Below are positions 34,740-50,008 of a stretch of 64,000 bases of DNA, in pieces (the first letter of the stretch is position 1; each line of letters begins with the position of its first letter). Source of the stretch: Candidatus Marinacidobacterium sp. (GTDB taxonomy: Bacteria; Acidobacteriota; Vicinamibacteria; Marinacidobacterales; Marinacidobacteraceae); NCBI GenBank assembly GCA_965204755.1, contig OZ242011.1, positions 2,400,001 to 2,464,000 of the forward strand, given 5' to 3'. Under the pieces are notes generated by a model, which searched no databases, had not been told where the DNA came from, and was given only the letters and a program-made list of their open reading frames with translations. Position numbers and translations under genes: made by a program.

Positions 34740-36398
34740 TCAGCCACCACCCAAGCGGTGTTCTCGTAGGCGCTCCACACCCAGTTCGTCGAGGAGGCGC
34801 CGCGTGAGCGCCTGCTCCCGGTCGTCCGCGAGCCGGTCCACCATGTCGTCGAAGAGTTCCCGCTTTCCTTCCAGGATGCGTTCCAAGCCCTCCTCGACTG
34901 TATCCCGGCAGACGAAGCGGTATTCGCGCACCGACCGAGTTTGGCCGATCCGGTGGACCCGGTCGCGCGCCTGGTTGTTCGTGGACGGGTTCCACCACTG
35001 GTTGAACAGGAATACATGGTTCGCCTCGGTGAGCGTCAAGCCTTCGCCGCCGATGCGTGTCGAGGCGAGCAGCGCGGTCGTCCGTTCGTCCGCGCGAAAC
35101 CGTTGGAGGGCGCGCTCGCGTTCGTCGGCGTCCATTTCACCGACGAACAACAAACCGGCGCTCTCGCCCCAGCGTTCCGTCATCCGCCGGCGGAGTTCGT
35201 GGAGAGGTTTCAGCCGGTGGGAAAAGACGACGGCTTTCTCTCCTTCGTCGCGGATGCCGGCGAGCCGCCCCAGGATTCGATCTCCCTTGCTGCTCTCGTT
35301 GGTGTCCGGATCGAGATCGCAGACCGTGAGGAGCCGCGTGAGCAGCGCCAGTTCTTCACCGGGCGAGCGGTGCTCCCGCAGCGCGCTCCGGTAGGCGCGT
35401 TCCTGTCCGGCGGAGAGTTCCAGGTGTTCCGTCGTCTCGCGACGAGGGGGGAGTTGATCCAGGACTTCCCGTTTCCGCCGTCGCAACATGAACTCCCGCG
35501 CCCGGCTGCGGAGCGAGGCCGGGAGTCGCGCGTCCGATGGCGAGAACCGGGTTGGCTGGACGAGTGCGAGCAGCGTCGCCAAGTCGTCCGGAGCCCGCTC
35601 CAGCGGCGTGCCGCTGATCGCCCAGAACCGCTTGGGCCGCAACCGCGCCAGGCCGCCGGTGACCTTCACGCCCTGCTTGCGCAGTCGGTGCGCTTCGTCG
35701 GCGACGATCACTTCCGGTGGGTTGCCGACCAGCGCTTCCGGCGTCGTCCGCAGGTGTTCGTAGTTGGTCAAGAGCACATGCCGCCGTCCGGCGACCGCCC
35801 GCCACGCATCCTCCCGAATGGATCGGGGCGGGTTCAGGACGGCGACGCCGAGTTCCGGCGCCCACTTTTCGAATTCGTTCTCCCAGGTCGGGATGAGGCC
35901 CTTCGGGCAGACGACGACGACCGTGCGGATCGTCCCCCCATTGAACAGCAGACGGAGAGCGGTGATGACTTGGACGGTCTTCCCCAGCCCCATGTCATCG
36001 GCGAGGATGGCGCCGGTTCGCTCGACGAGCCATTCCACCCCGTCGCGCTGAAAGGGATAGAGACTCTCCATCTCCGGGGGATCGCAGAGCACCGGCAGTA
36101 CCAACTCCCCTACTCCGAGCCGGAGTCGGCGGTATTCCGCCAACTTCGGCCGCATCGCGCGTCCGGAACGGATCGCCCGGTCGGCGGAGACGACGACGCG
36201 CACCTGTTCGCCGTTCTCGACGAGCCGGCGTTGTTGCGCGTCGAGCGAAAGAGCCCACTCGGACGCCACCCTCAACCGCTCGGCGACCGTGGAGGCGTCG
36301 TGGATCGGTGGCGCGGAGGACAGGAACCGGAAGACGACCCCGCCGGAAACCGCATCCACCGGTTGGGATCGAGGCCGGTCGGCGCTCCGCGCCGGCAT
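34740..36398 (-). CDS. Minimal SNF2/SWI2-family ATPase
   Basis: LADDMGLGKT, DEAH, SGTP, GEGLTL, WWNP..QARDRVHRIGQ. Confidence 0.92.
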   Translation of the reverse strand: MPARSADRPRSQPVDAVSGGVVFRFLSSAPPIHDASTVAERLRVASEWALSLDAQQRRLVENGEQVRVVVSADRAIRSGRAMRPKLAEYRRLRLGVGELVLPVLCDPPEMESLYPFQRDGVEWLVERTGAILADDMGLGKTVQVITALRLLFNGGTIRTVVVVCPKGLIPTWENEFEKWAPELGVAVLNPPRSIREDAWRAVAGRRHVLLTNYEHLRTTPEALVGNPPEVIVADEAHRLRKQGVKVTGGLARLRPKRFWAISGTPLERAPDDLATLLALVQPTRFSPSDARLPASLRSRAREFMLRRRKREVLDQLPPRRETTEHLELSAGQERAYRSALREHRSPGEELALLTRLLTVCDLDPDTNESSKGDRILGRLAGIRDEGEKAVVFSHRLKPLHELRRRMTERWGESAGLLFVGEMDADERERALQRFRADERTTALLASTRIGGEGLTLTEANHVFLFNQWWNPSTNNQARDRVHRIGQTRSVREYRFVCRDTVEEGLERILEGKRELFDDMVDRLADDREQALTRRLLDELGVERLREHRLGGG

Positions 36399-36407
36399 CG
36401 GTGATCC

Positions 36408-37766
36408 CTACGATCCGGCGCCGACGGCCGCGGAGCGGGCGGCAGTGACCCGCTCCCACATGCGCTTGATCTCGTCGTTCGTGGCCGGCGGATAGAGGAA
36501 ACTCGACCAGCGATCGCGGAGATCCTTCTCTTCTTGCTCGGTCAACGGATCGAGGCCCGACATCCAGCGGAACAATTCCTCGGCCCCGTCCACGGCCTTC
36601 GTGCGATCCTCGCTGCGCATTCGCAGTTTCCCGGTCTTCGGGTCCTCGACGAGGAAATAGTTCCGCCACGGCGGGCCGTGGAGGTCCCAGGGCATGGAGG
36701 CCAAGGGACGGAGCGCCTGCACCATCGCCTGGTCGTCGCCGACCGGGTCCAGGTCACACCGATCCAGGAGCGATCGCGCCACTCGCGCCAACACTTCCTG
36801 CCCCACCGGCCAGAACGCGAGGTGGTCCGCGTACTTCTCGGGCTCCGCCTTCGGAATCTCGTGGGCGCGCATCAGTTCCGGTTCGCTGCGAAGCACCGGA
36901 AGGGCCTCGATGAGCGCCGACCAGATCCGGGAGATCTGGTCGTTGTAGGCGGCGATCTCGGTGTCTTCCGGTCGGAATTGCAAGAAGACCTTCAGATCCC
37001 TCGGCCTCCCGAGTTTCTGCCGCCGCGTGACGCCCATGAGCAGGACGCGGTTCATGTAGTAGAGCGTCTGGAGACTCGTGAAGTACTGCTGGCCCGAGCG
37101 CAGGTTCTTTCCGCTCGTCAGCACGCGAAAGGACTCCTTGTGCGGCAGGGGCACGCGGAAGAACTCGTGGTCGGAGATCAGCGCACGGGTCGCGATCGCG
37201 AACACATCGTCTTCGTCCATGATGATGTTCGTGTCGGGGTCCGTCGGCTTCGCGTAGCGGTTCAGGCTGGAGAACAGCCGCCGATACCGTTGAATCCAGA
37301 GCGACTTGTCCCGTTCCTCGGACGGGTCGGGCCGAGGCACGACGATCACCGAGATCTGCTCGTTGGCGAAGTCGGGCGGGGCGCCGGCCGGATCTTCGAG
37401 GAGTTCCTGGATGGAAGTCAGCCGGTGCTGGCCGTCGAGAGCGTAGTAGCGGGGATCCTTCTGGAAGGTCAGTTCGCCGAAGGTCTCGGCGAACCGGGAC
37501 TCCACCGGCGTCCAGGTCGGGTTCCCCCCGATCGCGGCGACGACCAGCGAGGAGTAGAAGCGGTCGGGCCGGCGGGAAAGGAACTTGACGAGTTCGTTCT
37601 TGACCCGCGACTCCTTCACCGCGCGCTGGATCGCGTCGCTCAGCGTCTCGTCGGTCCACAACTCGCTCGCGAGGTCCACTTCGCGAGCGACCTCCCGCAT
37701 GGTCATGCGGGCGATGTAGTAAGTCCAGTCGCCCATCCGGGCGCGCATGGCGGGATAGACCTGCAT
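36408..37766 (-). CDS. DGQHR-domain (DndB-like) protein
   Basis: AGGAGG RBS; YPAMRARMGDWTYY, IQR, LDGQHRL, RRLFSSLNRYAKP. Confidence 0.88.
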   Translation of the reverse strand: MQVYPAMRARMGDWTYYIARMTMREVAREVDLASELWTDETLSDAIQRAVKESRVKNELVKFLSRRPDRFYSSLVVAAIGGNPTWTPVESRFAETFGELTFQKDPRYYALDGQHRLTSIQELLEDPAGAPPDFANEQISVIVVPRPDPSEERDKSLWIQRYRRLFSSLNRYAKPTDPDTNIIMDEDDVFAIATRALISDHEFFRVPLPHKESFRVLTSGKNLRSGQQYFTSLQTLYYMNRVLLMGVTRRQKLGRPRDLKVFLQFRPEDTEIAAYNDQISRIWSALIEALPVLRSEPELMRAHEIPKAEPEKYADHLAFWPVGQEVLARVARSLLDRCDLDPVGDDQAMVQALRPLASMPWDLHGPPWRNYFLVEDPKTGKLRMRSEDRTKAVDGAEELFRWMSGLDPLTEQEEKDLRDRWSSFLYPPATNDEIKRMWERVTAARSAAVGAGS

Positions 37767-37789
37767 CGGTGTGTCCTCCTGGCTGCGGC

Positions 37790-39637
37790 TCAGCAGCCGC
37801 GGTGTTCTTTCTTGATTCGATCGAGCGCTTGACGCAGCCGCCGGATGTCGCGGGCGGCCTCCTTGCGGGCCTTCCTGTTGACGGCATCGGTCAGGGGCTT
37901 TCCGCCCTCGGGGAACTCTTCCTTGAGTCCCGGGCGAATCTGCTTCTTGTACCCCCGAAGGACGGTGTTCTCCAGAGTCTCCAGCAGCGTCTCCCGCCAG
38001 CCCTCCCAGTCCGTCGTCCAAGTCTTCGGCCACGGGCCGCCGTAGGCTGCGACCAGCAACTCCAGGTAGGCGCCCAGAGCGTCCGGGACCTGCGAGAAAC
38101 GGTAGTTGACGATGGTGTCGTTGTGATCTTCCGCGATGTGCAGCAGTTCGCGTCGTCCCTGTTTGAGCCAACCCGCGTCGAACAGTCCATTCAGGCCGAT
38201 GGCGAACCGCTTCCCGTACTTCGACCAGTCGGGGTTGTCGAACCGTTCCCGGAGCGCGCCGAAGGCGGCCATGACGCCTCTCATGCCGATATCGAGGCCG
38301 ATCGGTCCGGTGAGATGTTCCTTCTTGAGTTCCTCGATTCGGCCCCGGATGGTGTGGAGTTCCTTCCCTACGGCCTCCTTGATGGGATCATCCGCTCGGT
38401 TGCTGCCGAATCGCAGTTCTTCGAAGGCATGGCTCGCCAGGTCGGACTTCGCGTCGTCGCGGTAGTCCCGCTCGAGTTCGCGGAGTCCCTTCACATAGGA
38501 GGCGAAGGGACGGAAGGTCTGCAGGATGTGCTCGATAGCCGGAAGGATCCGCTTTCGAAAACGCTCCCGCAGCCGTTCACTGTCCGCGTGATTCAGCTTC
38601 TGGACGCCCGTGTTCCGGACGCTCGTGAAGGCGCGGTGGAGTGGATCCGGGGGCACGATTCCGAGGGCCGTTCGCGCCTGCTGGGAGAACTCGTCGACTT
38701 CGCCGTCGTTCTTGAACTCGCATCCGAGGATGTAGTAGCGCAGCCAGTCGCGAAGTTCCTCGACACTCTTGACGGCGGCCGGAGCGGCAACGCGTCGCCC
38801 CAAGCGCTCCTTCCCGGTCCAGTCGTAGAACAGCAGGGGTACGCGGTCGGGGTCTCGCCCCGCCAGCGGGCGGAGGTCGTTCTGGTGCGACCGTTCCAAG
38901 ATCTCCTGCGTGCAGATCGCAGATGGACTCTCGTCGGAGAGGAGGATCTGGCGGGCGACGCTGACGACCTGCGCCGTGGTGTTGATGTACACGAAGATCT
39001 TCCGCACGACATCGACGAGCCGAGGAAGGTTCTTCGCGCTGCCTTGAGAGCGGAAGGTGACGATGACCGCCGGAATACGCCACTGGCGCAATTGCCTGTA
39101 CCCAGACCTCCACATCCTCTTGAGGGCCGACAGTCGGTGTTGGCCGTCGACCGCGACCAGCCGGGTACGGGCGTCGCTCCACTCCAGGACTCCGTACTCG
39201 AAATGGCCCTCCATCCAGCGGACTCGGTAGTGGTCACCGTGGGTCAGGCAGTGCCACGGGGCCTCGCCTTCTCCGGAGATCCGCTGTTTCCGTTTGGTCA
39301 GCCGAGGCATCGCGGCGACGATGGAGCCGGCGCCCGTGGAAACGGGAAGGAGCGTCAGGGTGAGCGGATTGAAGAAGCGGACCTTGTCTTCGGATTCCAA
39401 GTACGGAATGAGGTTGTGCGTGACTCGTTCGAGGTCCACATCCCGCTGGAAGAGGTCCCGGACCGGCCACTGTTCCGATCCCTCGATGTCACTGACGAGC
39501 GAGATGTGATCGAGTTGGGCGGGATCGAGAGCGGTCTGGAGGTAGAGGGCGCTCACGCCGGAGCCGGCGCCGAATTCGCCGTACGCGCCGGCGAGTCGTT
39601 GGTTGAAGAGATGGTCCTTGACGGGAGGGGGAGGCAT
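37790..39637 (-). CDS. Large DGQHR-domain protein (615 aa)
   Basis: LFQRDVD, FFNPLT, VDGQHRL, RKIFVYINTTA; long helical C-terminal region. Confidence 0.85.
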   Translation of the reverse strand: MPPPPVKDHLFNQRLAGAYGEFGAGSGVSALYLQTALDPAQLDHISLVSDIEGSEQWPVRDLFQRDVDLERVTHNLIPYLESEDKVRFFNPLTLTLLPVSTGAGSIVAAMPRLTKRKQRISGEGEAPWHCLTHGDHYRVRWMEGHFEYGVLEWSDARTRLVAVDGQHRLSALKRMWRSGYRQLRQWRIPAVIVTFRSQGSAKNLPRLVDVVRKIFVYINTTAQVVSVARQILLSDESPSAICTQEILERSHQNDLRPLAGRDPDRVPLLFYDWTGKERLGRRVAAPAAVKSVEELRDWLRYYILGCEFKNDGEVDEFSQQARTALGIVPPDPLHRAFTSVRNTGVQKLNHADSERLRERFRKRILPAIEHILQTFRPFASYVKGLRELERDYRDDAKSDLASHAFEELRFGSNRADDPIKEAVGKELHTIRGRIEELKKEHLTGPIGLDIGMRGVMAAFGALRERFDNPDWSKYGKRFAIGLNGLFDAGWLKQGRRELLHIAEDHNDTIVNYRFSQVPDALGAYLELLVAAYGGPWPKTWTTDWEGWRETLLETLENTVLRGYKKQIRPGLKEEFPEGGKPLTDAVNRKARKEAARDIRRLRQALDRIKKEHRGC

Positions 39638-39649
39638 GAGCGGTTGGTG

Positions 39650-40282
39650 TCAGTGGATGCTGAAGGGTGGCCGGCAGGCGTTCATGAGGATGTGCTCGAT
39701 GAGGCCGGTCAGTGCTTCGTCGTCGATGCGACCGAGGTCTTGGCGGACGGACTTCTCGGTCCGGAGACAGGCGAAGAGGAGGTCGGACACGGGAAGGGAG
39801 ATTCCGAGTTCCTCCGTGTGACGGGTGAAGCGGCGGTGGAAGTTGCCGTTGGAGTTCCTGACATGCTCCGAGTATCGGCGCTTCAGGCAGTTCGTTCGGC
39901 CCACATACAGCGGGGGCATGAGCAAACTGGCTTCGAGAAGCAGGCGCTGCAGTGCGGTTCTCGTCTTCGACACCGACACGAGGCGCTTCCAAGTCTCCTC
40001 CGCGTCGCTACTCGTGTGGACGCGTTCGGTCCGACTGACGAGGAGATCGACGGACTGCCAGGTGAACTTCGCCGGAACCCGCCGCTCCGTCGGGTCGTCG
40101 TAACTGCGCAGATCGCGAACGATCTGCATCAACTTGGGGAGATCCCGGTCGTAGATCCAGAGCGGGACGAACCAGGCGTAGCAGCCAGGTTCTTCCGGGA
40201 TCTTGTGGGAGGTCTCGCTCGTGTAGAACGCGAGGCGGCCGTCGGCGCTCCGGAGGTCGCGGAAAACGCTGAGGTCGGTCAC
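39650..40282 (-). CDS. Putative GIY-YIG nuclease with long insert between motif halves
   Basis: GTG overlaps the desulfurase stop. IPEEPGCYAW ... PLYVGRTNCLKRRYSEH ... IEHILM..RPPF. Confidence 0.65.
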   Translation of the reverse strand: MTDLSVFRDLRSADGRLAFYTSETSHKIPEEPGCYAWFVPLWIYDRDLPKLMQIVRDLRSYDDPTERRVPAKFTWQSVDLLVSRTERVHTSSDAEETWKRLVSVSKTRTALQRLLLEASLLMPPLYVGRTNCLKRRYSEHVRNSNGNFHRRFTRHTEELGISLPVSDLLFACLRTEKSVRQDLGRIDDEALTGLIEHILMNACRPPFSIH

Positions 40283-41556
40283 GACGAAGATCGGTTCGCG
40301 GCGCGCCGCCGTGCGGATTCGAGTCGCGTGGCCAGATGGACCGGCGCGGACTCCTCGGTCATCGGGCCGAGGGCGAGGCGGAGGGTGGAGTAGGCGTCGG
40401 TCGGGGTGAGGCCGAGGGCGCGGAGGACCTGGGAGGGTTCCGGGGCGCCGGAGTGGCAGGCGGAGGCGGCGGAGAGGTCGAAGGCGGGGAGGTTGGCGAT
40501 GAGGGCGTCGGCGTCCGCGCCGGGGAAGGTGATCGATGTCGTGTGCGGGAGGCGGTGGGCGAGGGCGCCGTTGATGCGGGCTTCGGGGACGCGCGCGGTG
40601 ATTTCGCGTTCGAGGCGGTCGCGGAGGGCGGCGAGGCGGGGGGCCACTTGCGGGAGGCGGGCGACGGCGTTCGTGGCGGCTTCGGCGAAGGCGGCGATGG
40701 CCGGGGTGTTGGAGGTGCCCGGGCGGAGGCCGCGTTCGTGGCCGCCGCCGAACTGGATCGGGGCGACGGGGGCCCGGCGGGGGCCGCCTCGGACGAAGAG
40801 GGCGCCGACGCCCTTGGGGCCGTAGCACTTGTGGCCGCTCAGCGAAGCGAAGTCGAGGTCGAGGGATTCGACATCGAAGGGGATCTTCCCGAGGGCCTGC
40901 GCGGCGTCGGAATGGACCGGGACGCCGTGTTCCCGCGCGAGCGCGGCCGCCTCGGCGACCGGTTGGATCGTGCCGATCTCGTTGTTCGCGGTCTGGATGC
41001 TGAGGAGGAGCGCCGGTTCGTCTTCGGGCGGGGCGAGCAGGGCTGCCAGGGAGTCGAGGTCCACGCGGCCGTCCCGGCCGACGGGGGCGGTCAGCAACTC
41101 GAAGCCGTCCGCCGCCAGGTATCGCGCCGGGGCGAGGACCGACGGGTGTTCGATGGGCAGGGTGACGATGCGGCGGCGGGCGTCGCCTCGTTCGCGCGCG
41201 GCGCGGGCGGCGCCGAGGAGCGCCAGGTTGTTGCTCTCCGTCGCGCCGCCGGTGAAGACGATCTCTTCCGGAAGCGCGCCGACCGCTTCCGCCAGTCGTT
41301 CGCGGGCGTTTTCGACGATCTCGGCGGCGCGCTTTCCGGCGCGGTGGGCGCTCGAAGGGTTCGCGTAGGTCTCCTCGGCGACTCGCTGCATCAGCGCGAG
41401 GGCCGCCGGGTCCATCGGCGTGGACGCCTGGTGGTCGAGGTAGGTGCGGGTCGGTACGGCGGTCACGGCGCGCGCCGGCGGCCCGGCCGACGGCGATACG
41501 ACCGGAGCGGCCGGCGCGGCCATCCCCGAGGGAAGGGCCGGCGCGGGGGCGCTCAC
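40279..41556 (-). CDS. sspA: Cysteine desulfurase (IscS/DndA/SspA-like)
   Basis: YLDHQASTP, FTGGATESNN, DAAQ, SGHKCYGPKG (PLP Lys), SACHS (catalytic Cys); GTGA overlaps at both ends. Confidence 0.9.
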   Translation of the reverse strand: MSAPAPALPSGMAAPAAPVVSPSAGPPARAVTAVPTRTYLDHQASTPMDPAALALMQRVAEETYANPSSAHRAGKRAAEIVENARERLAEAVGALPEEIVFTGGATESNNLALLGAARAARERGDARRRIVTLPIEHPSVLAPARYLAADGFELLTAPVGRDGRVDLDSLAALLAPPEDEPALLLSIQTANNEIGTIQPVAEAAALAREHGVPVHSDAAQALGKIPFDVESLDLDFASLSGHKCYGPKGVGALFVRGGPRRAPVAPIQFGGGHERGLRPGTSNTPAIAAFAEAATNAVARLPQVAPRLAALRDRLEREITARVPEARINGALAHRLPHTTSITFPGADADALIANLPAFDLSAASACHSGAPEPSQVLRALGLTPTDAYSTLRLALGPMTEESAPVHLATRLESARRRAANRSSS

Positions 41557-42422
41557 TTGTGACACATCAGGCACAGGTCGTCCTCGTCGTCGCCGAGCGC
41601 CTCGTAACCGAAGGCCTGGCCGAGGGTCTTCGGGCGGCGTCTCGCCGCGCGGCGCTCCCGATCCTTCGCTTCCCGGTCGAGGATCTGCTGCGTGCGGGCC
41701 GGGTCTTCGATCTGCGTGAGGCTCTCGTGACTCACCCAGGTGTATCCCTCTTCCTCCTTCTCGTAGGCCTTGGCCTTCTCGTAGAGGTCGGGGTGTTCCC
41801 GGCGCAGCCGCACCCACTCGCCGCGCTGCTGGAAGAAGCAGAAGTAGCAGCCGGAGCGGGAACGCCATTCGTAGTACTTCGGCACGCCGACGCCGCTGGT
41901 TTCCAGCAGGCGCAGGACATCGCCCTTGGCGAGTCCGTCCTCCTTGAACGGGAAGACCGCGGTGATGTTGGGTTTCGTGGAGATGTAGCCGCCGCGGTTC
42001 TCGTCGGCGCGGATGCCGACATAGAGGAGCGTGGGGTCGTCGCCGACATACTTCTCGAAGGGCTCGATCTTGAGCAGCCGGGTGCACCACCTGGCGCTGG
42101 GCGAGGGCAGGAAGCCGCCGTAGAGTTTGAGGAAGTGGTCGAAGCCGCGGTCGCCGTGTTCCGAAGCGAGGCGGACGATGGGGCGGCCGAGCCGCGCTTC
42201 GATGCGGGCCAGGTACTCGTAGGTTTCGGGGAGTTCCTTGTGGGTATCGCAGAAGAGGTACTCGTAGTCGGTTTCGGGGTGCTTCTCGCGGAGGTAGAGC
42301 GCCAGCGCGGTCGAGTCCTTGCCGCCGGAGAGCGTCACGATGTGGCGCACGGCTTCCGAACCGTCGGCGGGAGCCCCAGCGCGGCCCGAGCGCGCGGCGT
42401 CCTCTTTCGTACCGGCGCTCAT
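41553..42422 (-). CDS. sspD: PAPS-reductase-family PP-loop protein (SspD/DndC-like)
   Basis: SGGKDS, RWCT..LKI.P, GIRADE, RSGCYFC; ATGA overlap with the ATPase. Confidence 0.85.
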   Translation of the reverse strand: MSAGTKEDAARSGRAGAPADGSEAVRHIVTLSGGKDSTALALYLREKHPETDYEYLFCDTHKELPETYEYLARIEARLGRPIVRLASEHGDRGFDHFLKLYGGFLPSPSARWCTRLLKIEPFEKYVGDDPTLLYVGIRADENRGGYISTKPNITAVFPFKEDGLAKGDVLRLLETSGVGVPKYYEWRSRSGCYFCFFQQRGEWVRLRREHPDLYEKAKAYEKEEEGYTWVSHESLTQIEDPARTQQILDREAKDRERRAARRRPKTLGQAFGYEALGDDEDDLCLMCHK

Positions 42423-45400
42423 GCGTCAGGCCTCGGGCGGGGCGGTCCGACGGCAGGTTCGATGAGCCGGGTCAACAGCGTGAGCGCGGCTTGGTGTTCC
42501 TGCGGCGTGTAGCGCGCCATCGCGCCGCGCCAGTCTTCGAACAGGCGCTCGGCCGCCCCGTTGCCGTTCGCTGCGCCGTTGGCGGGGGCGCCGTTGCCGT
42601 TCGCCGCACCGTTGGCGGGGGCGCCGTTCCCCTCCGCCGCCGCGGCCCTCGACGAAACGCCCTCCGCGGCGCGGGAATCCACCAAGCGGCCCAGCCGAGC
42701 CATCTCGTGGGCCAGCAGCCGGATGCGCGCTTCCGCCCGCTCCGCCCGGTCGTCGTTCCAGCGGTCCGCCGGGAGCCCGTCGCCCAGCGGGAGCGCGAGC
42801 GTCTCCCGCCAGTCCGTCCGGTCGTCGTCGGTCCGGAGCGCCGCTTCGAGGAATTGCCTCAGGGTCAACTCGGTGGCGTGCTCCCGCAGCCGCATCGCCT
42901 CCTCGCGCAGTCGGCGCGGGAGGTCGGCGTCCGTCTCCGCCCGTTCCGCCGGCGCTCCCCCGGCCCCGGATTCCGCCGCGACCGCCCGGCCGAGTTCGCG
43001 TTCGAGCCGCCGGAGCAGCGACGGGTAGGCCGCGCCGATCTCCTCGACCGCCATCCCCAACCGGGCCGCGTACTCGGCGCCGTCCGTCCGCCCTCGCGTC
43101 GGCGAGGCCAGGCCCAGCGCCTTCGGGAGGTCGCGGAGGACCAGGTCGCGCGGATCCCGGGCGGACAGCAACTCGTCGCGGACGCGGCGGGAGTCGTCGC
43201 CGATCCGTCGCGTCTGCCGGGCGTACGCGGGCAGGCGAACGGCGCCGCCCACGAGCCGGCGCGTGACCGCGAGCAGCCGCTGGTCGTCCCGCGCGGAGTC
43301 CGGGACGCCGAAGGCGCGGCCGACAGCCCGCAACACCCGCCGCTCGGCCGGGCGGAACCGCAGTGACCGGAGCGCGAAGGTCTCCGGGCGGCGGATGAGG
43401 CGCTCCAGCGTCTCGATGCCGGTGTCCGGGACGAACAGCCCGTCCTCGTAGAGCGCGACGCGGTCGCCGAACACCCGGAGGTAGAGCGCGAGCAGCACCG
43501 GGAACGGCCCGGAGCGCAGCCCGAACGGGGGCGCTTCCAACCGGGCGATGAGGTCGGTGAGCGGCCTCGGCGCCTCGGCCGCTTGCCGGACGAACTCCGA
43601 GATCGCCTTCCACACCGGCTTCCAGGCCGGCGCGGTCGGCGAATCCAACCGGAACGACCCGTCGCGGCGCCTCCGGTGGAAGCCGCCCGCCTCGACCAGC
43701 GAGCAGTACATGCTGAACTCCGGCGGGAAACCCCGGATTCCCAACCGCTCTTCGGCGCTCCCGGCGACGATGCGCTCGATCAGGTTCCGCCGCCCGGCGG
43801 CCGCCGCCGCCGACAGCGCGCTGCGGTTCAGCAACTCGTTGCGCAGCGGCGGCGCCTCGGCGTACTCCTCGTCGCAGAGGCGGGTGAGGCGCGCCTGGAG
43901 CGCCCGCGGCCCGGTCAACTCGGTCGCCTCGTCGCCGGCGAAGAACCAGCGCCAATGTGACGGGTCGAGGACATGGCCGGAGAGGCCGAGCGCCGGGCCG
44001 GCGGCCTCCTCGAACCGCCGCCGCGCCGCGTCCTCGCGTTCGGCGGCTTCCCGGCGGGCGGCTTCGTCGCCGGCGAGTTCGGGGACCCGCTCCCGCACCT
44101 GCCGCCAGGCCTCCACTTCGTCGAGGGCCGCGCCGAGCGCCTCCGGCTTCCGCGAGACCGCCACGACCACCGGCCGGCCCGGCGGCCGCTCGCCGAAGAG
44201 ACTCGCTCGCTCGCTGTCTCCGTCCCCCGCGCCGCGGCCGCCGGCCGCCCGCGCCCGGGCCGGCGGAAGGTCCCCGAGGACGAAGAGCAGGATCCCGTCG
44301 GCGGCGGCGGGTTCGGCGAGCGCTTCGTCGAGGGCGTCCGGCGCGGTGAGGCGCGGCTCGAACCAGCGGAGCGTCCCGGTGCGGACGCTGTGCTCGCGGG
44401 CCACCGGGGGCCGGGGTTCGCTGACGCGGCGGAGCCGCTCGTGGAGCGGCGCGGGCTCCCGCTCGGCGAGCGCCTGCGCCAGCGAGTCGTCGAGGTCGAG
44501 GTCGGAGCCCTCCCAGAGCCCGTAGGCCGAACGGTGCCGCCGCCAGAGCGCGATGGACTCCCGGGTGAGACCGGCGAGCGCCGCGCGAACCGCCTTCGGC
44601 GGGCGGTCGTCCAGCGCGGTCTCCAGGGTCTCCCGGTCCGGGCGCAGCCCGACGGGGTCCCCGTAGAGCGTGAGCAGGCCGATGGCCTTGACCAGGTCGG
44701 CGGCGAGCGGCGGCGCGTCCGCCGGCACGCGGTCGAGCGCCCCGGCGATGAGGCGGAAGCGGCGCGCGTCCGGGCCGCTGAACGCGGCGGAACCCAGCGC
44801 CTCCACCGCGTAGTCGTAGAGCCGGGGCAGGCGGAAGAACGGTGGCGGGGTCCCCGGGGCGACGGTCTCCTCGTCGAGGAACCGGCGGAAGCCATAGGGC
44901 TCGTGGCTGGTCAGGAAGGCGAACAGCGAGCGCTCGTTCTGCGCCGCCTTGCTGCGGAACAGCGGCCAGAGCAGCAGGGCCGTCGTCGCGTGGAGCGGGG
45001 CGCAGGCGGCCACGCGGGCCGGCGCGGCGGGCGGGCGGCGGCTCCGGCGGTGGAGCGTCCCGGCGAGGGCGGCGGCGCGCGCCGCGTAGGGGTCCTCCGC
45101 GGCGTCCTTCTCCGGCGCCCGGCCCAGCGCGGCGGCGATCAGGTCGAGGACCTGGTCGTCGGGGAGGGCGAAGGGGAGGTCCTGGAACCGGCCTTGGACC
45201 TTCTGCCACTCGGCGCGGCGGCGGGCGGAGGCGCCGGCGCCGGGGAGGTAGTCGGAGAAGCCCGAGTGGAGCGCGCCGATGAGCAGCAGCGGCCGTTCGC
45301 TCCGCGCCGCGGCTTCCGCGAGTTGCTGGAGGAAGAAGATGTCCTCGGTGTCCTCGCCGGCGGCGAATTCGAGGTACTTGCCGAGTTCGTCGAGGACGAG

Positions 45401-45976
45401 CAGCAGCCCGCCCGGGCTTTGGGCCGCGGCTTCGGAGAGCAGCGCGGCGCACTTGGCGCCGGACGGCGCGGCGCTCCGCGCGAGGGCCAGCGCCCGGCGG
45501 CGGATCGTCGGGAGGCCGGCGGCGGCGAGCGAGCCGGCGACGGCCGGGATCAGCGGGGCGGCCTCCGCCTGGAGCAGCAGGGGGGTGAGCGGCGCGGCGC
45601 GCTTCGGGAAGAGGTCGCCGCGCAGCCGCTCCGCTTCCGGGTGCTCCGGGGCCCTCCGGGCCAGCAGGTCGGCGAGGAAGAGGAGGAACGAGGACTTGCC
45701 CGAGCCGTAGGGGCCGGTGAGCGTCCAAGCGCGGGCTCCTCCGGGAGTCGTCAGGTCTTCGAGGATTTGGCGGGCGGTCTCCCGGATGGCGCCGGTGACC
45801 ACATAGCCGCCGGGGGCGTCCCGGTTCTCCCAGTCGCGGGGGAGGTGCGCCGAGCGGTGGAAGCGGAGGGGCGGCCGCACCAGGGCCCGGAGCGGGCGCG
45901 GCGCCGGCCGGGAAGTCGTCTGCCGGGCCGGGCGCGGTTTCGCCGCGGCGGCCGGGCGGCTCAGTTTCGATACCAC
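42419..45976 (-). CDS. sspC: Large P-loop ATPase (SspC/BrxC-like)
   Basis: GPYGSGKSS Walker A, LLLVLDELGK Walker B, EWQKVQGRF, QNERSLF, PPFGLR.G. GTG start inferred. Confidence 0.78.
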   Translation of the reverse strand: MVSKLSRPAAAAKPRPARQTTSRPAPRPLRALVRPPLRFHRSAHLPRDWENRDAPGGYVVTGAIRETARQILEDLTTPGGARAWTLTGPYGSGKSSFLLFLADLLARRAPEHPEAERLRGDLFPKRAAPLTPLLLQAEAAPLIPAVAGSLAAAGLPTIRRRALALARSAAPSGAKCAALLSEAAAQSPGGLLLVLDELGKYLEFAAGEDTEDIFFLQQLAEAAARSERPLLLIGALHSGFSDYLPGAGASARRRAEWQKVQGRFQDLPFALPDDQVLDLIAAALGRAPEKDAAEDPYAARAAALAGTLHRRSRRPPAAPARVAACAPLHATTALLLWPLFRSKAAQNERSLFAFLTSHEPYGFRRFLDEETVAPGTPPPFFRLPRLYDYAVEALGSAAFSGPDARRFRLIAGALDRVPADAPPLAADLVKAIGLLTLYGDPVGLRPDRETLETALDDRPPKAVRAALAGLTRESIALWRRHRSAYGLWEGSDLDLDDSLAQALAEREPAPLHERLRRVSEPRPPVAREHSVRTGTLRWFEPRLTAPDALDEALAEPAAADGILLFVLGDLPPARARAAGGRGAGDGDSERASLFGERPPGRPVVVAVSRKPEALGAALDEVEAWRQVRERVPELAGDEAARREAAEREDAARRRFEEAAGPALGLSGHVLDPSHWRWFFAGDEATELTGPRALQARLTRLCDEEYAEAPPLRNELLNRSALSAAAAAGRRNLIERIVAGSAEERLGIRGFPPEFSMYCSLVEAGGFHRRRRDGSFRLDSPTAPAWKPVWKAISEFVRQAAEAPRPLTDLIARLEAPPFGLRSGPFPVLLALYLRVFGDRVALYEDGLFVPDTGIETLERLIRRPETFALRSLRFRPAERRVLRAVGRAFGVPDSARDDQRLLAVTRRLVGGAVRLPAYARQTRRIGDDSRRVRDELLSARDPRDLVLRDLPKALGLASPTRGRTDGAEYAARLGMAVEEIGAAYPSLLRRLERELGRAVAAESGAGGAPAERAETDADLPRRLREEAMRLREHATELTLRQFLEAALRTDDDRTDWRETLALPLGDGLPADRWNDDRAERAEARIRLLAHEMARLGRLVDSRAAEGVSSRAAAAEGNGAPANGAANGNGAPANGAANGNGAAERLFEDWRGAMARYTPQEHQAALTLLTRLIEPAVGPPRPRPDA

Positions 45977-47056
45977 CGTTCGAGGAGGGAGAGCGGGCGC
46001 GGGGCGCCGCGGCGGTGGAGTCCGCGGAGTCCGGCGGTCTCGTCGTAGCGGAGGCCGGTGTCCTTCGGGAGGCGCTCGAGAGCGGCGACCAGACTGCGGT
46101 CGTCGAGCCGGAAGGCCGCGCCGGGGCTGCCGGGGTGGAAGAGGAGCCGTTCGAGGGTCAGCGTCTGCTGTCCGGCGGCCCTCGCGTCCCAGAACTCGAG
46201 GACGGCGAAGGCGAGTACGGCGTCGGGCAGGCTGGGCCGGGGGCCGCGCGGGATCGCGTAGCGGCGGCCCGCGAGCGGGCGGATCAGGCCGAGTTCGGCC
46301 AGCGGGCAGTCGAAGGACTCTTCCACCGGCCGGCGGCGGTCGTTCTTCGGCGGCAGGTAGGTGCGCAGGAAGACATCCACATCCCGGCGGATCGAGGACA
46401 GCGAGACCGCGCGGCCCGGCGGCGCGGCGTTCCGGGCCTGGAGGAGGAGCCACTGCGCCAGCCCCTCGCGGGTGAACGAGGACTCCGGGAACCGGGTGAA
46501 CGCCAGGCGCCAGGTGGACGCCGGCGCCGTCGGCGCCGTGAGACGCCAGTGGAGCAGCCAGAGGGTCCCGGGGTCTTCCAGGAACGGGTCTGCGCCCGAA
46601 AGGGCGTCAGCGGCGCTCTCAGCGCCGTTCAGCGACTGGTGAGAGTGGAGTCCCGGTGATTTCTGGGGGGGGGGGGGGGGGGGGTAGGTTGGTTCGGAGG
46701 TCGGGGCCGGCGCCGAGGAGGAGCGTTCCGAGGTCGGTCAGGCGGGCCTCGCGGCCCCGGTCGCGCGGCGTTCGGCCGCGAGCCCCGGCGGCGAATCGGA
46801 TCAGTCCGGCGGCGGCGCACCAGTGCCGGATGGAGGCGACCATGTTCTTCCCGACGCCGAGCCGGGCGAGCGCGTCCGGGCGGGCGAAGAGGGCGGGGTC
46901 TTCGTGGATCGCGGCGGCGGCCTTGGCGAACCAGCCGTGCCGGAACGGGAAGGTCTGATGCCCGGTGAACCGGTAGGCGGGGTCGGCCGCCGCGCCGGGG
47001 ACGGGGCCGCCGGGAGCGCGGGCGGCGGTTCCGGCGAGCGACCCGGTGGGAGGCAC
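45961..47056 (-). pseudogene. sspB: DUF4007 (SspB-like) gene frameshifted in a C20 tract (phase-variable or assembly error)
   Basis: N-half: FTGHQTFPFRHGW..K, LGVGKNMVASIRHW. C-half in another frame, open from the tract to 45961: DPFLEDPGTLWLLHW, RRDVDVFLRTY, CPLAELGLI, PGAAFRL. Start inferred. Confidence 0.85.
46665..46684 (-). repeat. Homopolymer G20 (+) / C20 (coding strand)
   Basis: Counted directly; by far the longest homopolymer noticed in the window. Confidence 0.95.
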
Positions 47057-47435
47057 GGAGGGCTTCGGCGAAGGGGGTTCCGGAGACGGGCGGGCGGCGC
47101 TCCGGGAACCGGGCGGGATTATTCCATTTCGGGCGGCGGAGGGCGGGGTCGGGCGTCGTTCCGCTGCGAGGGGCGGCGCGGAGGGAGCGTGCCGACGGTC
47201 TCGGCAGCGGCCGGCTGCCGAGCGGGATCGAGGCCCGAGGTCGCGCTGTGGCTCGGAGAGGAGCCGTCGGTCGGCGAAGAGAGGTCCGGCGCGCGGCGAC
47301 AGCGAGGAGGGAGTCGGCAAGAAGTGTCCGTGTCCGTTGTGGCGACGGTCATCTTCGTCCGATGGGTGGACGGAAAGTGTCATCCCTTCGTTCGGCGCGT
47401 CCGTCGGCGTCTCGCAGCCCGGGTCGTGGTTCCGG

Positions 47436-48371
47436 TCAGCGGCCTCGGGGCTCGCCCCGGAAGACCTGCTTCCGATGCCATGCCACGAACTCGGCGCTCG
47501 GGAGGAACTTCCCCTCCTGCGGCGGTCGGAGCGGGCGACCGCGGGCGTCCACGAGTTGGCGGAAGACCTCGCCTTGACCGCTCAGATTCCGGGACACGAG
47601 AAGGACGAAGCCGGCGCCGGCTTCGCGTTCGAGGCCGATGGCGCCCCGGTCGAGGGCGCGGTGGTGGAAGGCGCAGAGCGCGAGCCCGTTCGGGATCGTG
47701 TCGGGGCCTCCGTGGGAATGCCAGCGGATGTGGGCCGCATCGAGCCCGAAGAGATCGTCGGAGAGACGGATGTCGTAGTCGCACACCGCGCAGCGGCGCT
47801 CGTAGGCCGTGAGCACCAACTCCCGGAAGCGCGGGTCGCGCGGCCTTCGGCGCGCGGCGTCGAAGATCGTGTCTTCATGGCTCATGACCTCGTCGAGGCC
47901 GACCTCGTTCCGTATCGCTTGGTGCAGGGACTCCGGGAAATGGTCGGTGAGCAACCGGTTCGCGGCGCGCTCGACGAGTTCGCGATCGGCGAGCAACAGG
48001 CTCTGCAGCGACTCCGGGAACCCGCCCGCCACGGCGTGTTCCCGAAGATACTTCGCTCGGAGGTCGTCCCAACTGGTCTTGGCCTTTTCGGGCAGGGTCT
48101 CGAAACCCGGAATCTCCCAGAGTCCGTCCGTAAGCAGCCGTCGGAACGGATGTTCGGGATGGTGCCGTTTCCTCGGCGGGCCGAACCGTTCGAGCAGTCC
48201 GCTCAGTGGTCTCTCGATTTCGCGGCCGAAGTCGTGGAGGCGCGACGCCTCGCCCCTCGCCACGCGACCGAGCGCGAGCAGCAGAAGCAGCGGCTTGTGC
48301 GGCGCTCGTTTGCCTCCCTTCCGATGGACCCTCAGCCCGTCGAGACGGCGAAGGAACTCTTCGGGCGTCAT
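47436..48371 (-). CDS. SBD-HNH endonuclease (phosphorothioate-DNA-binding restriction enzyme, SprMcrA-like)
   Basis: N-terminal RAPHKPLLLLLALG...PEHPF..L.TDGLWE; C-terminal RDPRFR..VL.AY..RCAVC...AAHI.WH..GGPD...NGLALC..HH...DRG. Confidence 0.82.
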   Translation of the reverse strand: MTPEEFLRRLDGLRVHRKGGKRAPHKPLLLLLALGRVARGEASRLHDFGREIERPLSGLLERFGPPRKRHHPEHPFRRLLTDGLWEIPGFETLPEKAKTSWDDLRAKYLREHAVAGGFPESLQSLLLADRELVERAANRLLTDHFPESLHQAIRNEVGLDEVMSHEDTIFDAARRRPRDPRFRELVLTAYERRCAVCDYDIRLSDDLFGLDAAHIRWHSHGGPDTIPNGLALCAFHHRALDRGAIGLEREAGAGFVLLVSRNLSGQGEVFRQLVDARGRPLRPPQEGKFLPSAEFVAWHRKQVFRGEPRGR

Positions 48372-48382
48372 CGCGTATCGAG

Positions 48383-48835
48383 TCAGTCGTTCGTTTCAGT
48401 AAGTCGGCGGTGGTCCTCCCGCGAGCGGGAGAGGGCGCGGTTGGCCAGGTTGATCGGGTCTTCGTTGCCGGTGAGTCCGAAGCCCTTCTCCTCGAGCATC
48501 TCGCTGACGCGTTCGCATTCGGCCCAGTAGGCCTGCTCGGCGCGTTCCTTCGCTTCCGGGCCGTCGTCGGGGTTCCACGAGGGGCCCATGGCGGGCAGCG
48601 CGTCCAGGCCGGTGACCCGGCCGTCCTCGTGGATGCGGACATGACGGTCGTTCGTCATGCGGTGCATGGCGTAGTAATCCAGGAACTCCCCGTCCTCGTC
48701 CCGGTCGAAGAGGAACCAGATCGCCCAACCTTGGTCGAGGATCTGCCCGCGCTCCCGCTGCCGGACGGCGCCGGCGGGCAGGCGTATGCCCCAGTGGTCG
48801 AACATGTCGCCGAAGATGGTTTCGATGCGTTCCAT
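48383..48835 (-). CDS. Hypothetical protein (150 aa), probably co-transcribed with SBD-HNH
   Basis: GGAGG RBS; globular composition (FLDYYAMHRMTNDRHVRI); 11-nt gap to the HNH gene. Confidence 0.7.
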   Translation of the reverse strand: MERIETIFGDMFDHWGIRLPAGAVRQRERGQILDQGWAIWFLFDRDEDGEFLDYYAMHRMTNDRHVRIHEDGRVTGLDALPAMGPSWNPDDGPEAKERAEQAYWAECERVSEMLEEKGFGLTGNEDPINLANRALSRSREDHRRLTETND

Positions 48836-48898
48836 GGTGCGTTCCCTCCGGATCCCCCGCGCCGGTCGAGGCGCGGCCCGAATGGTAGAGGCCGCGCC

Positions 48899-50008
48899 TC
48901 AGACCTTGAAGTAGATCCGGCGGCGGTCGAGGAAGACCGCGACCCCGATCCAGAGCGCCGTGTGGGTGAGCGCGAAGCCCAGGGAACCGTGGAGCGGGCC
49001 GAGCCACGAAGCGAAGACCGACTCCCAGATCCGGGTATGCGCCGAGCCCGCGCCGGGCGCCGGGAACAGCAGCAGGGTCTTCGCCAGCAGGCCCGAACCC
49101 ACGAAGATCAGGATGGAGTTTTTCCCCGCCGCCTCGGCCCAGCGGATGAAGGGTCGGCCCCATCGCGGCGGCTCCCCGCCGTAGTCGAGCAGGTTCGCCG
49201 AGAGGGCGAGGCAGGAGAGCGCGATGCCTCCCGTGAACACCGCGTAGGAACTCGTCCACAGGTTCTTGTTGATCGGCAGCCAGAAACTCCAGATCCACCC
49301 GGCGCTCAGGAGGACGAATCCGGCGCCGAGCAACCCGGAGGTCTTTTCCGCCGGCGAACGCCCGCTTCGCAGGTACGCGCCGGCGAACACGCCGATGAGC
49401 GCGCTGGCGATCGCCGGAACGGTGGAGAGGACGCCCTCCGGATCCCAACTGCCCTGGTAGAGGCTGCCGGGGAGCAGGACGCGGTCGAGGTATGCCGCGA
49501 GGTTCGTCCCCGGCTCGAGGTCGCCGGCCCGTCCGCCCGGAGGCGGAACGAACGCCAGCGCCGCATGGAAGCCGGCGAGACACGCTCCGGTGAGCCAGAG
49601 CAGTCCGCGCCGCGAGAGGTAGAGGAACGCCGCTCCGGTGACCAGGTACGCCGCGCCGATCCGCTGCAGTACGCCGGGGAGCCGCAGGTCGGCGAGATCG
49701 AAGAACGGATAGGCGGCGAGCAGCAGGCCGAGCGCGACCAGGATCCCGCTCCGCCGCGCCACCCGCCCGAGCAGCCGCGCGCGCGGCGTCCCGGCTTCGA
49801 CCCGCGCCCCCAGCGAGAAGGGAATCGCCGCGCCGACGATGAACAGGAAGAACGGGAAGATCAGGTCGGTGGGCGTCCACCCGTGCCACGGCGCGTGGAG
49901 CAGCGCCGGATAGACATGGCTCCAACTCCCCGGGTTGTTCACCACGATCATCGAGACGATGGTGACCCCGCGAAAGTAGTCGAGGGAACGAAGCCGCGTC
50001 CGCATCAC
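48899..50008 (-). CDS. Heparan-alpha-glucosaminide N-acetyltransferase-like membrane protein
   Basis: RSLDYFRG, VNNPG, HAPWHGWTPTDLIFPFFLFIVG, GVLQRI, DPEG, PINKNLWTSSY. Confidence 0.9.
   Translation of the reverse strand: MMRTRLRSLDYFRGVTIVSMIVVNNPGSWSHVYPALLHAPWHGWTPTDLIFPFFLFIVGAAIPFSLGARVEAGTPRARLLGRVARRSGILVALGLLLAAYPFFDLADLRLPGVLQRIGAAYLVTGAAFLYLSRRGLLWLTGACLAGFHAALAFVPPPGGRAGDLEPGTNLAAYLDRVLLPGSLYQGSWDPEGVLSTVPAIASALIGVFAGAYLRSGRSPAEKTSGLLGAGFVLLSAGWIWSFWLPINKNLWTSSYAVFTGGIALSCLALSANLLDYGGEPPRWGRPFIRWAEAAGKNSILIFVGSGLLAKTLLLFPAPGAGSAHTRIWESVFASWLGPLHGSLGFALTHTALWIGVAVFLDRRRIYFKV

Follow-up and report, generated by a model that had tools for sequence, protein, structure and literature searches.

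The window, a stretch of 64,000 nucleotides, lies in a genome (G000) assembled as a single contig of 3.98 Mb with 71.7% GC; the sequencing runs that contain at least half of its words and whose label can be read come from sponges or marine metagenomes. Its minus strand carries a phosphorothioate (PT) cluster in the order sspB-sspC-sspD-sspA, followed by a 216-aa protein, two DGQHR/DndB-like proteins and an SNF2 helicase. The first gene, sspB, adjoins the gene of a PT-dependent nuclease within a defence island and is frameshifted; the rest of the PT cluster is intact, and sspC, sspD, sspA, both DGQHR genes, the SNF2 gene and the HNH gene occupy one frame each. Profile matches identified the ATPase gene sspC (42419..45976; PADLOC SspC, E 1.7e-238), the PAPS-reductase family gene sspD (41553..42422; SspD, E 2e-108) and the cysteine desulfurase gene sspA (40279..41400, start approximate; SspA, E 4e-116), all on the minus strand. 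Beyond them on the same strand are the protein of about 216 aa (39650..40300), which had no matches in family-profile scans and is also found in the clusters of G001, G007, G483 and G474; a DGQHR-like protein of 615 aa (37790..39637), whose match to TIGR03187 (E 2e-7) is under the curated cut-off; a DndB-like DGQHR protein of 452 aa (36408..37766; PF14072, E 1.8e-30); and the SNF2-family helicase (34740..36398), which is co-conserved with the ssp cluster. The nuclease gene upstream of sspB (47436..48371, minus strand) is intact and encodes an SBD-HNH phosphorothioated-DNA-binding restriction endonuclease (NF045808, 302 bits against a cut-off of 180). A scan for promoters and terminators across window positions 45500-49000 revealed nothing above chance. 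An in-frame GTG at 45976, the candidate start of sspC, overlaps the 3' end of sspB, so that a frameshift in sspB may be polar on sspC.

The gene sspB is split at a minus-strand homopolymer of exactly 20 C (G20 on the forward strand, 46665-46684). The 5' half (46619..47056, minus strand), taken from the GTG at 47056 used by the public gene call (protein P0129), encodes 145 aa. It reads ...RTNL-P7-EITG... and, after P7, runs through 15 out-of-frame codons to a stop at 46619. The 3' half (45961..46664, minus strand) lies in a different frame here and reads QKSPG...ADPFLEDPGTLWLLHW..., open from the tract to 45961. Both frames agree with an earlier sequence-only reading of this DNA, as does its statement that 19 or 22 C would restore the gene. 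Lengths of 13 and 16 C are also in frame: a run of 3n+1 letters (13, 16, 19, 22) yields full-length SspB, and 14, 15, 17, 18, 20 or 21 C do not. Each half keeps the features of the family, as had been proposed; they match positions 1-78 and 74-288 of the Pfam DUF4007 profile, and positions 2-79 and 82-284 of the PADLOC SspB model. The tract was indeed found in an insertion between LLG and DPFLED, a variable loop of 40 codons (46591..46711, minus strand), where tract-less SspB homologues mostly have just a few residues.

An AlphaFold2 model of P0130, the product of a 19-C allele, was computed from 103 sequences and had a pLDDT of 85.7. The prolines, at residues ~116-145, formed a low-confidence coil (pLDDT ~52-57) between two helices. 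When the model was searched with Foldseek, the only matches under E 0.001 were the SspB crystal structures 6JUF and 6LB9 (E 2e-20, TM 0.70-0.77). On this model, it is credible that the in-frame product adopts the SspB fold.

The genes that make up an SspABCD system adjoin one another in the window: both halves of sspB, sspC, sspD and sspA. A search of the window's genome, which is 89% complete, with one SspE model gave only partial matches of 19-28 bits. Four of its five proteins with DUF262 and DUF1524 were scanned as SspE candidates, and their best scores were to Orf5/HEC-06. The genome has five such DUF262+DUF1524 (GmrSD-like) genes and 13 GmrSD_N matches above cut-off, and its set of predicted modification-dependent nucleases is unusually rich. 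The tract-less cluster of another genome, G006, does include a genuine sspE. No match to the SspF, SspG or SspH models was among those listed for the proteins near sspB, which for the SNF2 protein comprise 25 of 39 families.

We then compared the site in related genomes. Among 40 relatives there were 13 sspB-like matches, and the five closest (60-81% identity, four genera) carry a C run in the loop. The run is found in 5/5 close orthologues, all from the window's family, f1, and in 0/8 distant sspB genes, which have neither loop nor run. A DUF4007 search across 28 genomes of the family gave six split genes, seven whole and one truncated, and seven matches among 400 sampled genomes from across the phylum pointed to two further families. 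In genus g162, 15 of 42 genomes matched; all ten with the window's sspB type have a C run in the loop, and the five with a divergent type have no run of at least 8. In G191 the loop holds G14 instead of C, and this is the sole C/G run of at least 14 nt in its 6 Mb. G009, G004 and G005 have 2, 5 and 7 long runs genome-wide, one of which in each is the sspB site. A scan of metagenomes and named genomes returned 46 loci, and a C/G run of at least 9 was present only in L065 (the same sequence as L002) and L081.

Altogether, 14 gap-free genomes from three Acidobacteriota families have a run of 14-32 nt at the same site of the sspB loop, C in all but one, which has G; this is the comparison with related genomes that the sequence-only reading had proposed. 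Five are in frame (G229, G477, G479, G483, G484) and nine out of frame (G000, G001, G004, G005, G009, G191, G474, G476, G478). The 14 genomes have one island in common and cannot be treated as independent; the phase counts leave out G007 and G468, which have N gaps and poly-C/G debris at the site, and G462, whose contig breaks there. Outside genus g162, 6/6 gap-free genomes are out of frame, which could reflect selection for the off state there. The tract-bearing SspB proteins of the three families are ~55-80% identical. On a quick tree built on the part of sspB 3' of the loop, at least five changes of tract label are required, and the tract has apparently been placed in the same loop at least twice, in C and G versions.

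The genes around the tract are also retained. In the tract-bearing loci examined, sspC, sspD and sspA are full length, the exception being a split sspA in G484. Most of these loci have the DGQHR, DndB-like DGQHR and SNF2 genes 3' of sspA, accompanied in some by the 216-aa protein; the same module is found 3' of sspE in G006. The module (window positions 34740-40300) is a candidate for an uncharacterised Ssp partner. Elsewhere, G116, from another family of the class, has 25 long C/G runs, yet its sspB is tract-free and intact; long-run repertoires thus extend beyond family f1, and a genome can have one and still lack a run in sspB. In G003 (L117), sspB is truncated after ~104 profile positions and lies beside sspA and an SBD-HNH gene; this is a decayed ssp cluster that retains the nuclease. 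In G021 (L119), an intact tract-less sspB is followed by a truncated sspC and a partial sspD.

Variation in run length was examined in the 90% protein cluster of the window's own product, which has 14 members, by inferring the length backwards from the protein sequences. Truncated members correspond to 14 C (P0125) and 20 C (P0129, from the window's genome), and full-length members to 16 C (P0131) and 19 C (P0130, 364 aa). P0130 has no differences from the window's protein in the first 120 aa and one in the last 234. The remaining members were left out as alleles: P0001 has foreign upstream sequence, P0121 an extra deletion beside the run and P0122 a run that is broken up and may be duplicated; P0123 and P0127 stop short of the run; and five consist of C-terminal fragments only. 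In-frame and out-of-frame pairs with identical C-terminal domains occur in four further lineages (P0136/L004; P0138/P0147; P0154/P0034 with P0155; and the poly-G pair P0152/P0051). The proposal that sspB is phase-variable is thus well supported by a conserved site, a varying length and both phases on otherwise identical or near-identical proteins in five lineages. We conclude that the run is very probably a conserved contingency locus, with a frame-setting repeat and both phases among close relatives.

Reads were examined as assembled contigs. In sequencing run X1, both flanks of the tract are covered ~230-fold and show no differences, and the contigs end inside the tract, each holding 18 G. 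Short branches of 18 G and 19 G, at depths of 55 and 45, join flanks of depth ~233; the branches might stem from homopolymer errors in the reads, and X1 is possibly the source sample. In X3, from another sample and study, one contig spans the site and is 6 letters shorter, which fits a length of 14 G if the gaps lie in the tract. In X2 and X7, contigs break around it. Consensus lengths of long C runs are commonly off by 1-2 nt. The difference between samples exceeds this error, so the tract is real and its length varies between samples. Error of 1-2 nt alone would give about one third in frame, so the ratio of 5/14 is no measure of switching, and the exact phase of any single assembly, the window's included, is uncertain. 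The sequence-only reading had held a sequencing error to be an equally live explanation. This does not apply to the existence of the tract, which recurs in relatives and is bridged by X3; it does still apply to the exact length here (20 as opposed to 19 or 18), since the X1 read graph branches into 18- and 19-G forms.

The sspB tract is one of many long runs in this genome. Of C/G runs, G000 contains 37 with 14-34 nt and not one with 10-13 nt; its A/T runs do not exceed 8. Between 4 and 9 nt, the count of C/G runs drops ~6-fold with each additional base, and extrapolating these counts gives 0.001 runs of at least 14 nt, against 37 observed. Motifs like those of MutL and MutS are present (motif match only), and great length may be what a run requires in order to slip despite mismatch repair. 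Runs of at least 14 nt were found in 20 of the 24 genomes of family f1 and in two other families of the order, where 2 of 16 genomes had a single run each; counts in fragmented genomes are inflated by contig-end debris. Genes under or beside the runs encode GT-C/PMT-like membrane proteins, GDSL/AlgX acyltransferases, arylsulfotransferases, a TupA ATP-grasp protein, TonB receptors, large surface proteins, polysaccharide loci and DNA-modification proteins (45 frames scanned, 18 of them with no Pfam match); three runs are in lipoprotein genes (L028). Among the DNA-modification genes, one of type III mod is split by G34 (L025:2961-2994) and one of type IIG/ISP restriction-modification by G21 (L032:3460-3480), and a type II methyltransferase gene has C26 at its 5' end (L030:2758-2783), located 1.2 kb ahead of the window. 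This one genome appears to have several switchable systems of DNA modification. When frames were read by eye for sspB and 17 of the 36 other runs, 3/18 were in frame, which is not clearly different from one third (p 0.10).

Other features of the runs were seen in passing. Two pairs of long runs ~200 bp apart with similar flanks (L022:8246-8480 and L023:7326-7526) lie at the 5' ends of two very large proteins (>2300 aa), and are possibly a two-stage switch or a duplicated leader. Paralogous GT-C/PMT-like membrane proteins and SGNH acyltransferases in L017 (G000:84000-95800), L029 and L037 have runs at differing positions, mostly out of frame, and may form a switchable surface-glycan kit. TA lies directly 5' of 24% of long runs compared to 1% of C5-C7 runs, and GAAA or GAAT shortly 3' of 16% compared to 2%, counts that paralogues inflate. 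Both flanks are also present at the sspB site across families.

Long mononucleotide runs slip during replication. We consider it likely that the sspB run brings about slipped-strand phase variation of Ssp-type PT. Mispairing during replication would add or remove C in a loop of sspB that tolerates changes in length; one length in three would yield full-length SspB, and the other two a stub of 140-150 aa. The frameshift would probably also lower translation of the overlapping sspC. Cells of a clone would then switch back and forth between states with and without a functional SspABCD machine, and the DNA of the genome would alternate between phosphorothioated and unmodified. We infer this toggling of PT from the place of SspB among the core components of Ssp-type PT (PMC12707154, PMC12914056). 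The purpose is most likely bet-hedging in conflicts over phage or DNA exchange, given the defence island and the methyltransferase and surface genes of the same genome that appear to be switched alike. Switching might also pay if PT is chemically costly where halogen oxidants are present in the sponge. An off phase should do no harm as long as unmodified DNA is not attacked by an effector, as suggested by the lack of an sspE among the genes found in the genome and of an SspFGH match among those listed for the locus; SspE is inactive without PT and SspFGH is toxic without it (PMC8092258). The idea that tract-less clusters are barred from switching by an effector toxic without PT gained no support in five such loci, one of which has sspE; no sspFGH was seen among the 27 frames scanned. 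The sequence-only reading had also spoken of a PT phasevarion. Gene regulation by PT proteins has a precedent (PMC9239176); for the sspB tract, the label, which implies a switched regulon, is unsupported.

Four other explanations were weighed against a slipped-strand switch. Programmed recoding sites normally hold one length and one shift. This bears on the possibility that the run acts at expression, with RNA polymerase slippage or a ribosome shift providing some full-length SspB in every cell, so that the run would be a dimmer and not a heritable switch. The prevalence of out-of-frame alleles (9/14) while the remaining cluster genes are intact would be explained in this way. However, +1, +2 and in-frame alleles all occur, with DNA lengths from 14 to 32, and the DNA length itself differs inside one species cluster, and we regard a dimmer as improbable. 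The run could instead be an unselected mutational hot spot, a short C run that expanded in a permissive loop and left out-of-frame sspB genes to decay. Long C/G runs are common in family f1 (20/24 genomes), and the family does include decayed ssp clusters (truncated sspB in G003, truncated sspC in G021). Such a hot spot is nevertheless hard to reconcile with one site retained across three families whose proteins are ~55-80% identical, with two stop-free sspB halves and intact neighbours, or with G191, where the run is the only long one of the genome and is G rather than C. For any particular 100 bp, the probability that a run falls there is 6e-5 to 1e-3 per genome, and the absence of runs of 10-13 nt is unlike a smooth drift process; this explanation is likewise improbable.

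A sequencing or assembly artefact, with a gene that is truly intact or has no long run, is very improbable. It would account for the poly-G debris and N gaps at the site in fragmented genomes (G007, G468, G462) and for the breaks around the run in X2 and X7, and the 19-G branch in X1 means that the population sampled may be partly or mostly in frame. But the X1 flanks match with no differences and each contig carries 18 G, X3 bridges the site, and an artefact would not recur in one loop of 14 gap-free genomes, turn C into G or create length differences of at least 6 nt inside a species cluster. It is more improbable still that the run is kept for its product, as a polyproline linker required by this SspB subfamily. 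In-frame alleles do encode 4-9 prolines in the loop, but only 30% of the Pro codons of the window's genome are CCC, and polyproline runs in well-scoring frames use mixed codons in 20/25 cases. Moreover, long loops occur with no polyproline in three sister proteins (P0011, P0018, P0032), and one SspB lineage has polyglycine in its place.

An SBD-HNH gene is present in 12 of the 14 tract-bearing loci within the 16-20 kb examined around sspB (4/6 loci in family f1 including the window, 7/7 in g162, and G191), and the two remaining tract-bearing genomes have one elsewhere. Among tract-less loci of the family, it is present in 1/4 examined. The window's protein matches the SBD structures 7CC9 and 5ZMO and keeps its HK and HNH motifs, with HP where the described sulfur pocket has YP. 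On the plain reading, it is a putative nuclease against foreign Dnd-type marks that is carried on the same island. A more speculative reading, which we hold to be unlikely, is that the island is a two-state self/non-self device in which the PT mark is turned on and off by the tract and read by the linked SBD-HNH protein. If so, off-phase cells would cut phage or plasmid DNA arriving from on-phase siblings, and in on-phase cells the mark would serve together with the DGQHR-SNF2 module, or else activate the nuclease in the way that PT arms SspE. A clone would split into two immunity types, and phage grown on one would be stopped by the other. The device is weakened by three observations: the SBD-HNH gene is intact in 5/5 in-frame genomes checked; it also lies beside the tract-less sspABCDE cluster of G006; and SBDSpr, the one SBD tested on CpsCA, did not bind it (PMC7470945). 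Strict mutual exclusion of PT and the nuclease is also unsupported.

Compared to known systems, the locus resembles SspABCD (SspB = DUF4007; 6JUF, 6LB9) in its four adjacent genes and in the predicted crystal-structure fold of the in-frame SspB. It differs in the hypermutable run in sspB, in that neither sspE nor sspFGH turned up at the locus, and in its partners, two DGQHR proteins, an SNF2 helicase and the SBD-HNH nuclease. Characterised Ssp systems place a single-strand PT at CpsCA, and 83.9% of sspBCD loci are without both known effectors (PMC8092258). The sspB alleles would provide a natural isogenic PT-on/PT-off pair for studying orphan Ssp function and the cost of PT. BREX type 4, in which BrxP is an SspD-SspB fusion (PMC12914056, PMC12839542), shares DUF4007, a PAPS reductase and a BrxC/SspC-type ATPase. 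In the window, DUF4007 and the PAPS reductase are separate genes, and PglZ and BrxL are absent among the 11 locus proteins scanned. By its genes and modelled fold, the locus is an SspABCD system and neither Ssp-SspE nor BREX type 4 (PMC12839542, PMC10853773). The upstream gene resembles the PT-dependent SBD-HNH enzymes EcoWI and SprMcrA (PMC7461809, PMC7470945) in passing the NF045808 cut-off with its motifs kept. It differs in having HP for YP and in its linkage to ssp in 12/14 tract-bearing loci, compared to the less than 3.6% of cases in which such enzymes adjoin dnd clusters (PMC7461809).

The nearest parallels to the switch itself are phase-variable methyltransferases (type III mod, type I phasevarions; PMC12707154, PMC6435447), in which a simple repeat in the reading frame likewise produces on and off alleles. 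The poly-G switch of a Campylobacter type IIG enzyme is a further parallel; the present genome also has the G34-split type III mod gene and the G21-split type IIG/ISP gene. In contrast to those methyltransferases, the mark predicted to be switched in the window is backbone sulfur, the regulon part of the likeness is unsupported, and SspB is the DNA-recognition and nicking subunit of a four-protein machine with a mid-gene run of 14-32 nt. The parallel was raised in a 2018 PT review that predates the ssp genes and reports no simple sequence repeats in dnd genes or promoters (PMC6435447). We found no phase-variable PT system in the literature searched, mostly open-access texts; an earlier mention elsewhere is possible. 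Repeat-slippage phase variation is well known for base methylation, and the sspB tract would be an example for PT, in its ssp branch. The sspB 'pseudogenes' of these genomes would accordingly be switch states, which annotators of defence systems will miscount. On the genome scale, the runs resemble the poly-G/C repertoires of Campylobacter and Neisseria, where dozens of C/G runs, as in G000, affect capsule- or glycan-modifying, surface and restriction-modification genes (PMC8713573, PMC5084427). Here they occur in uncultured, sponge-associated Acidobacteriota of 72% GC and measure 14-34 nt, with none of 10-13. Together, these comparisons suggest that contingency repertoires of the style known from pathogens occur in uncultured sponge-associated bacteria.
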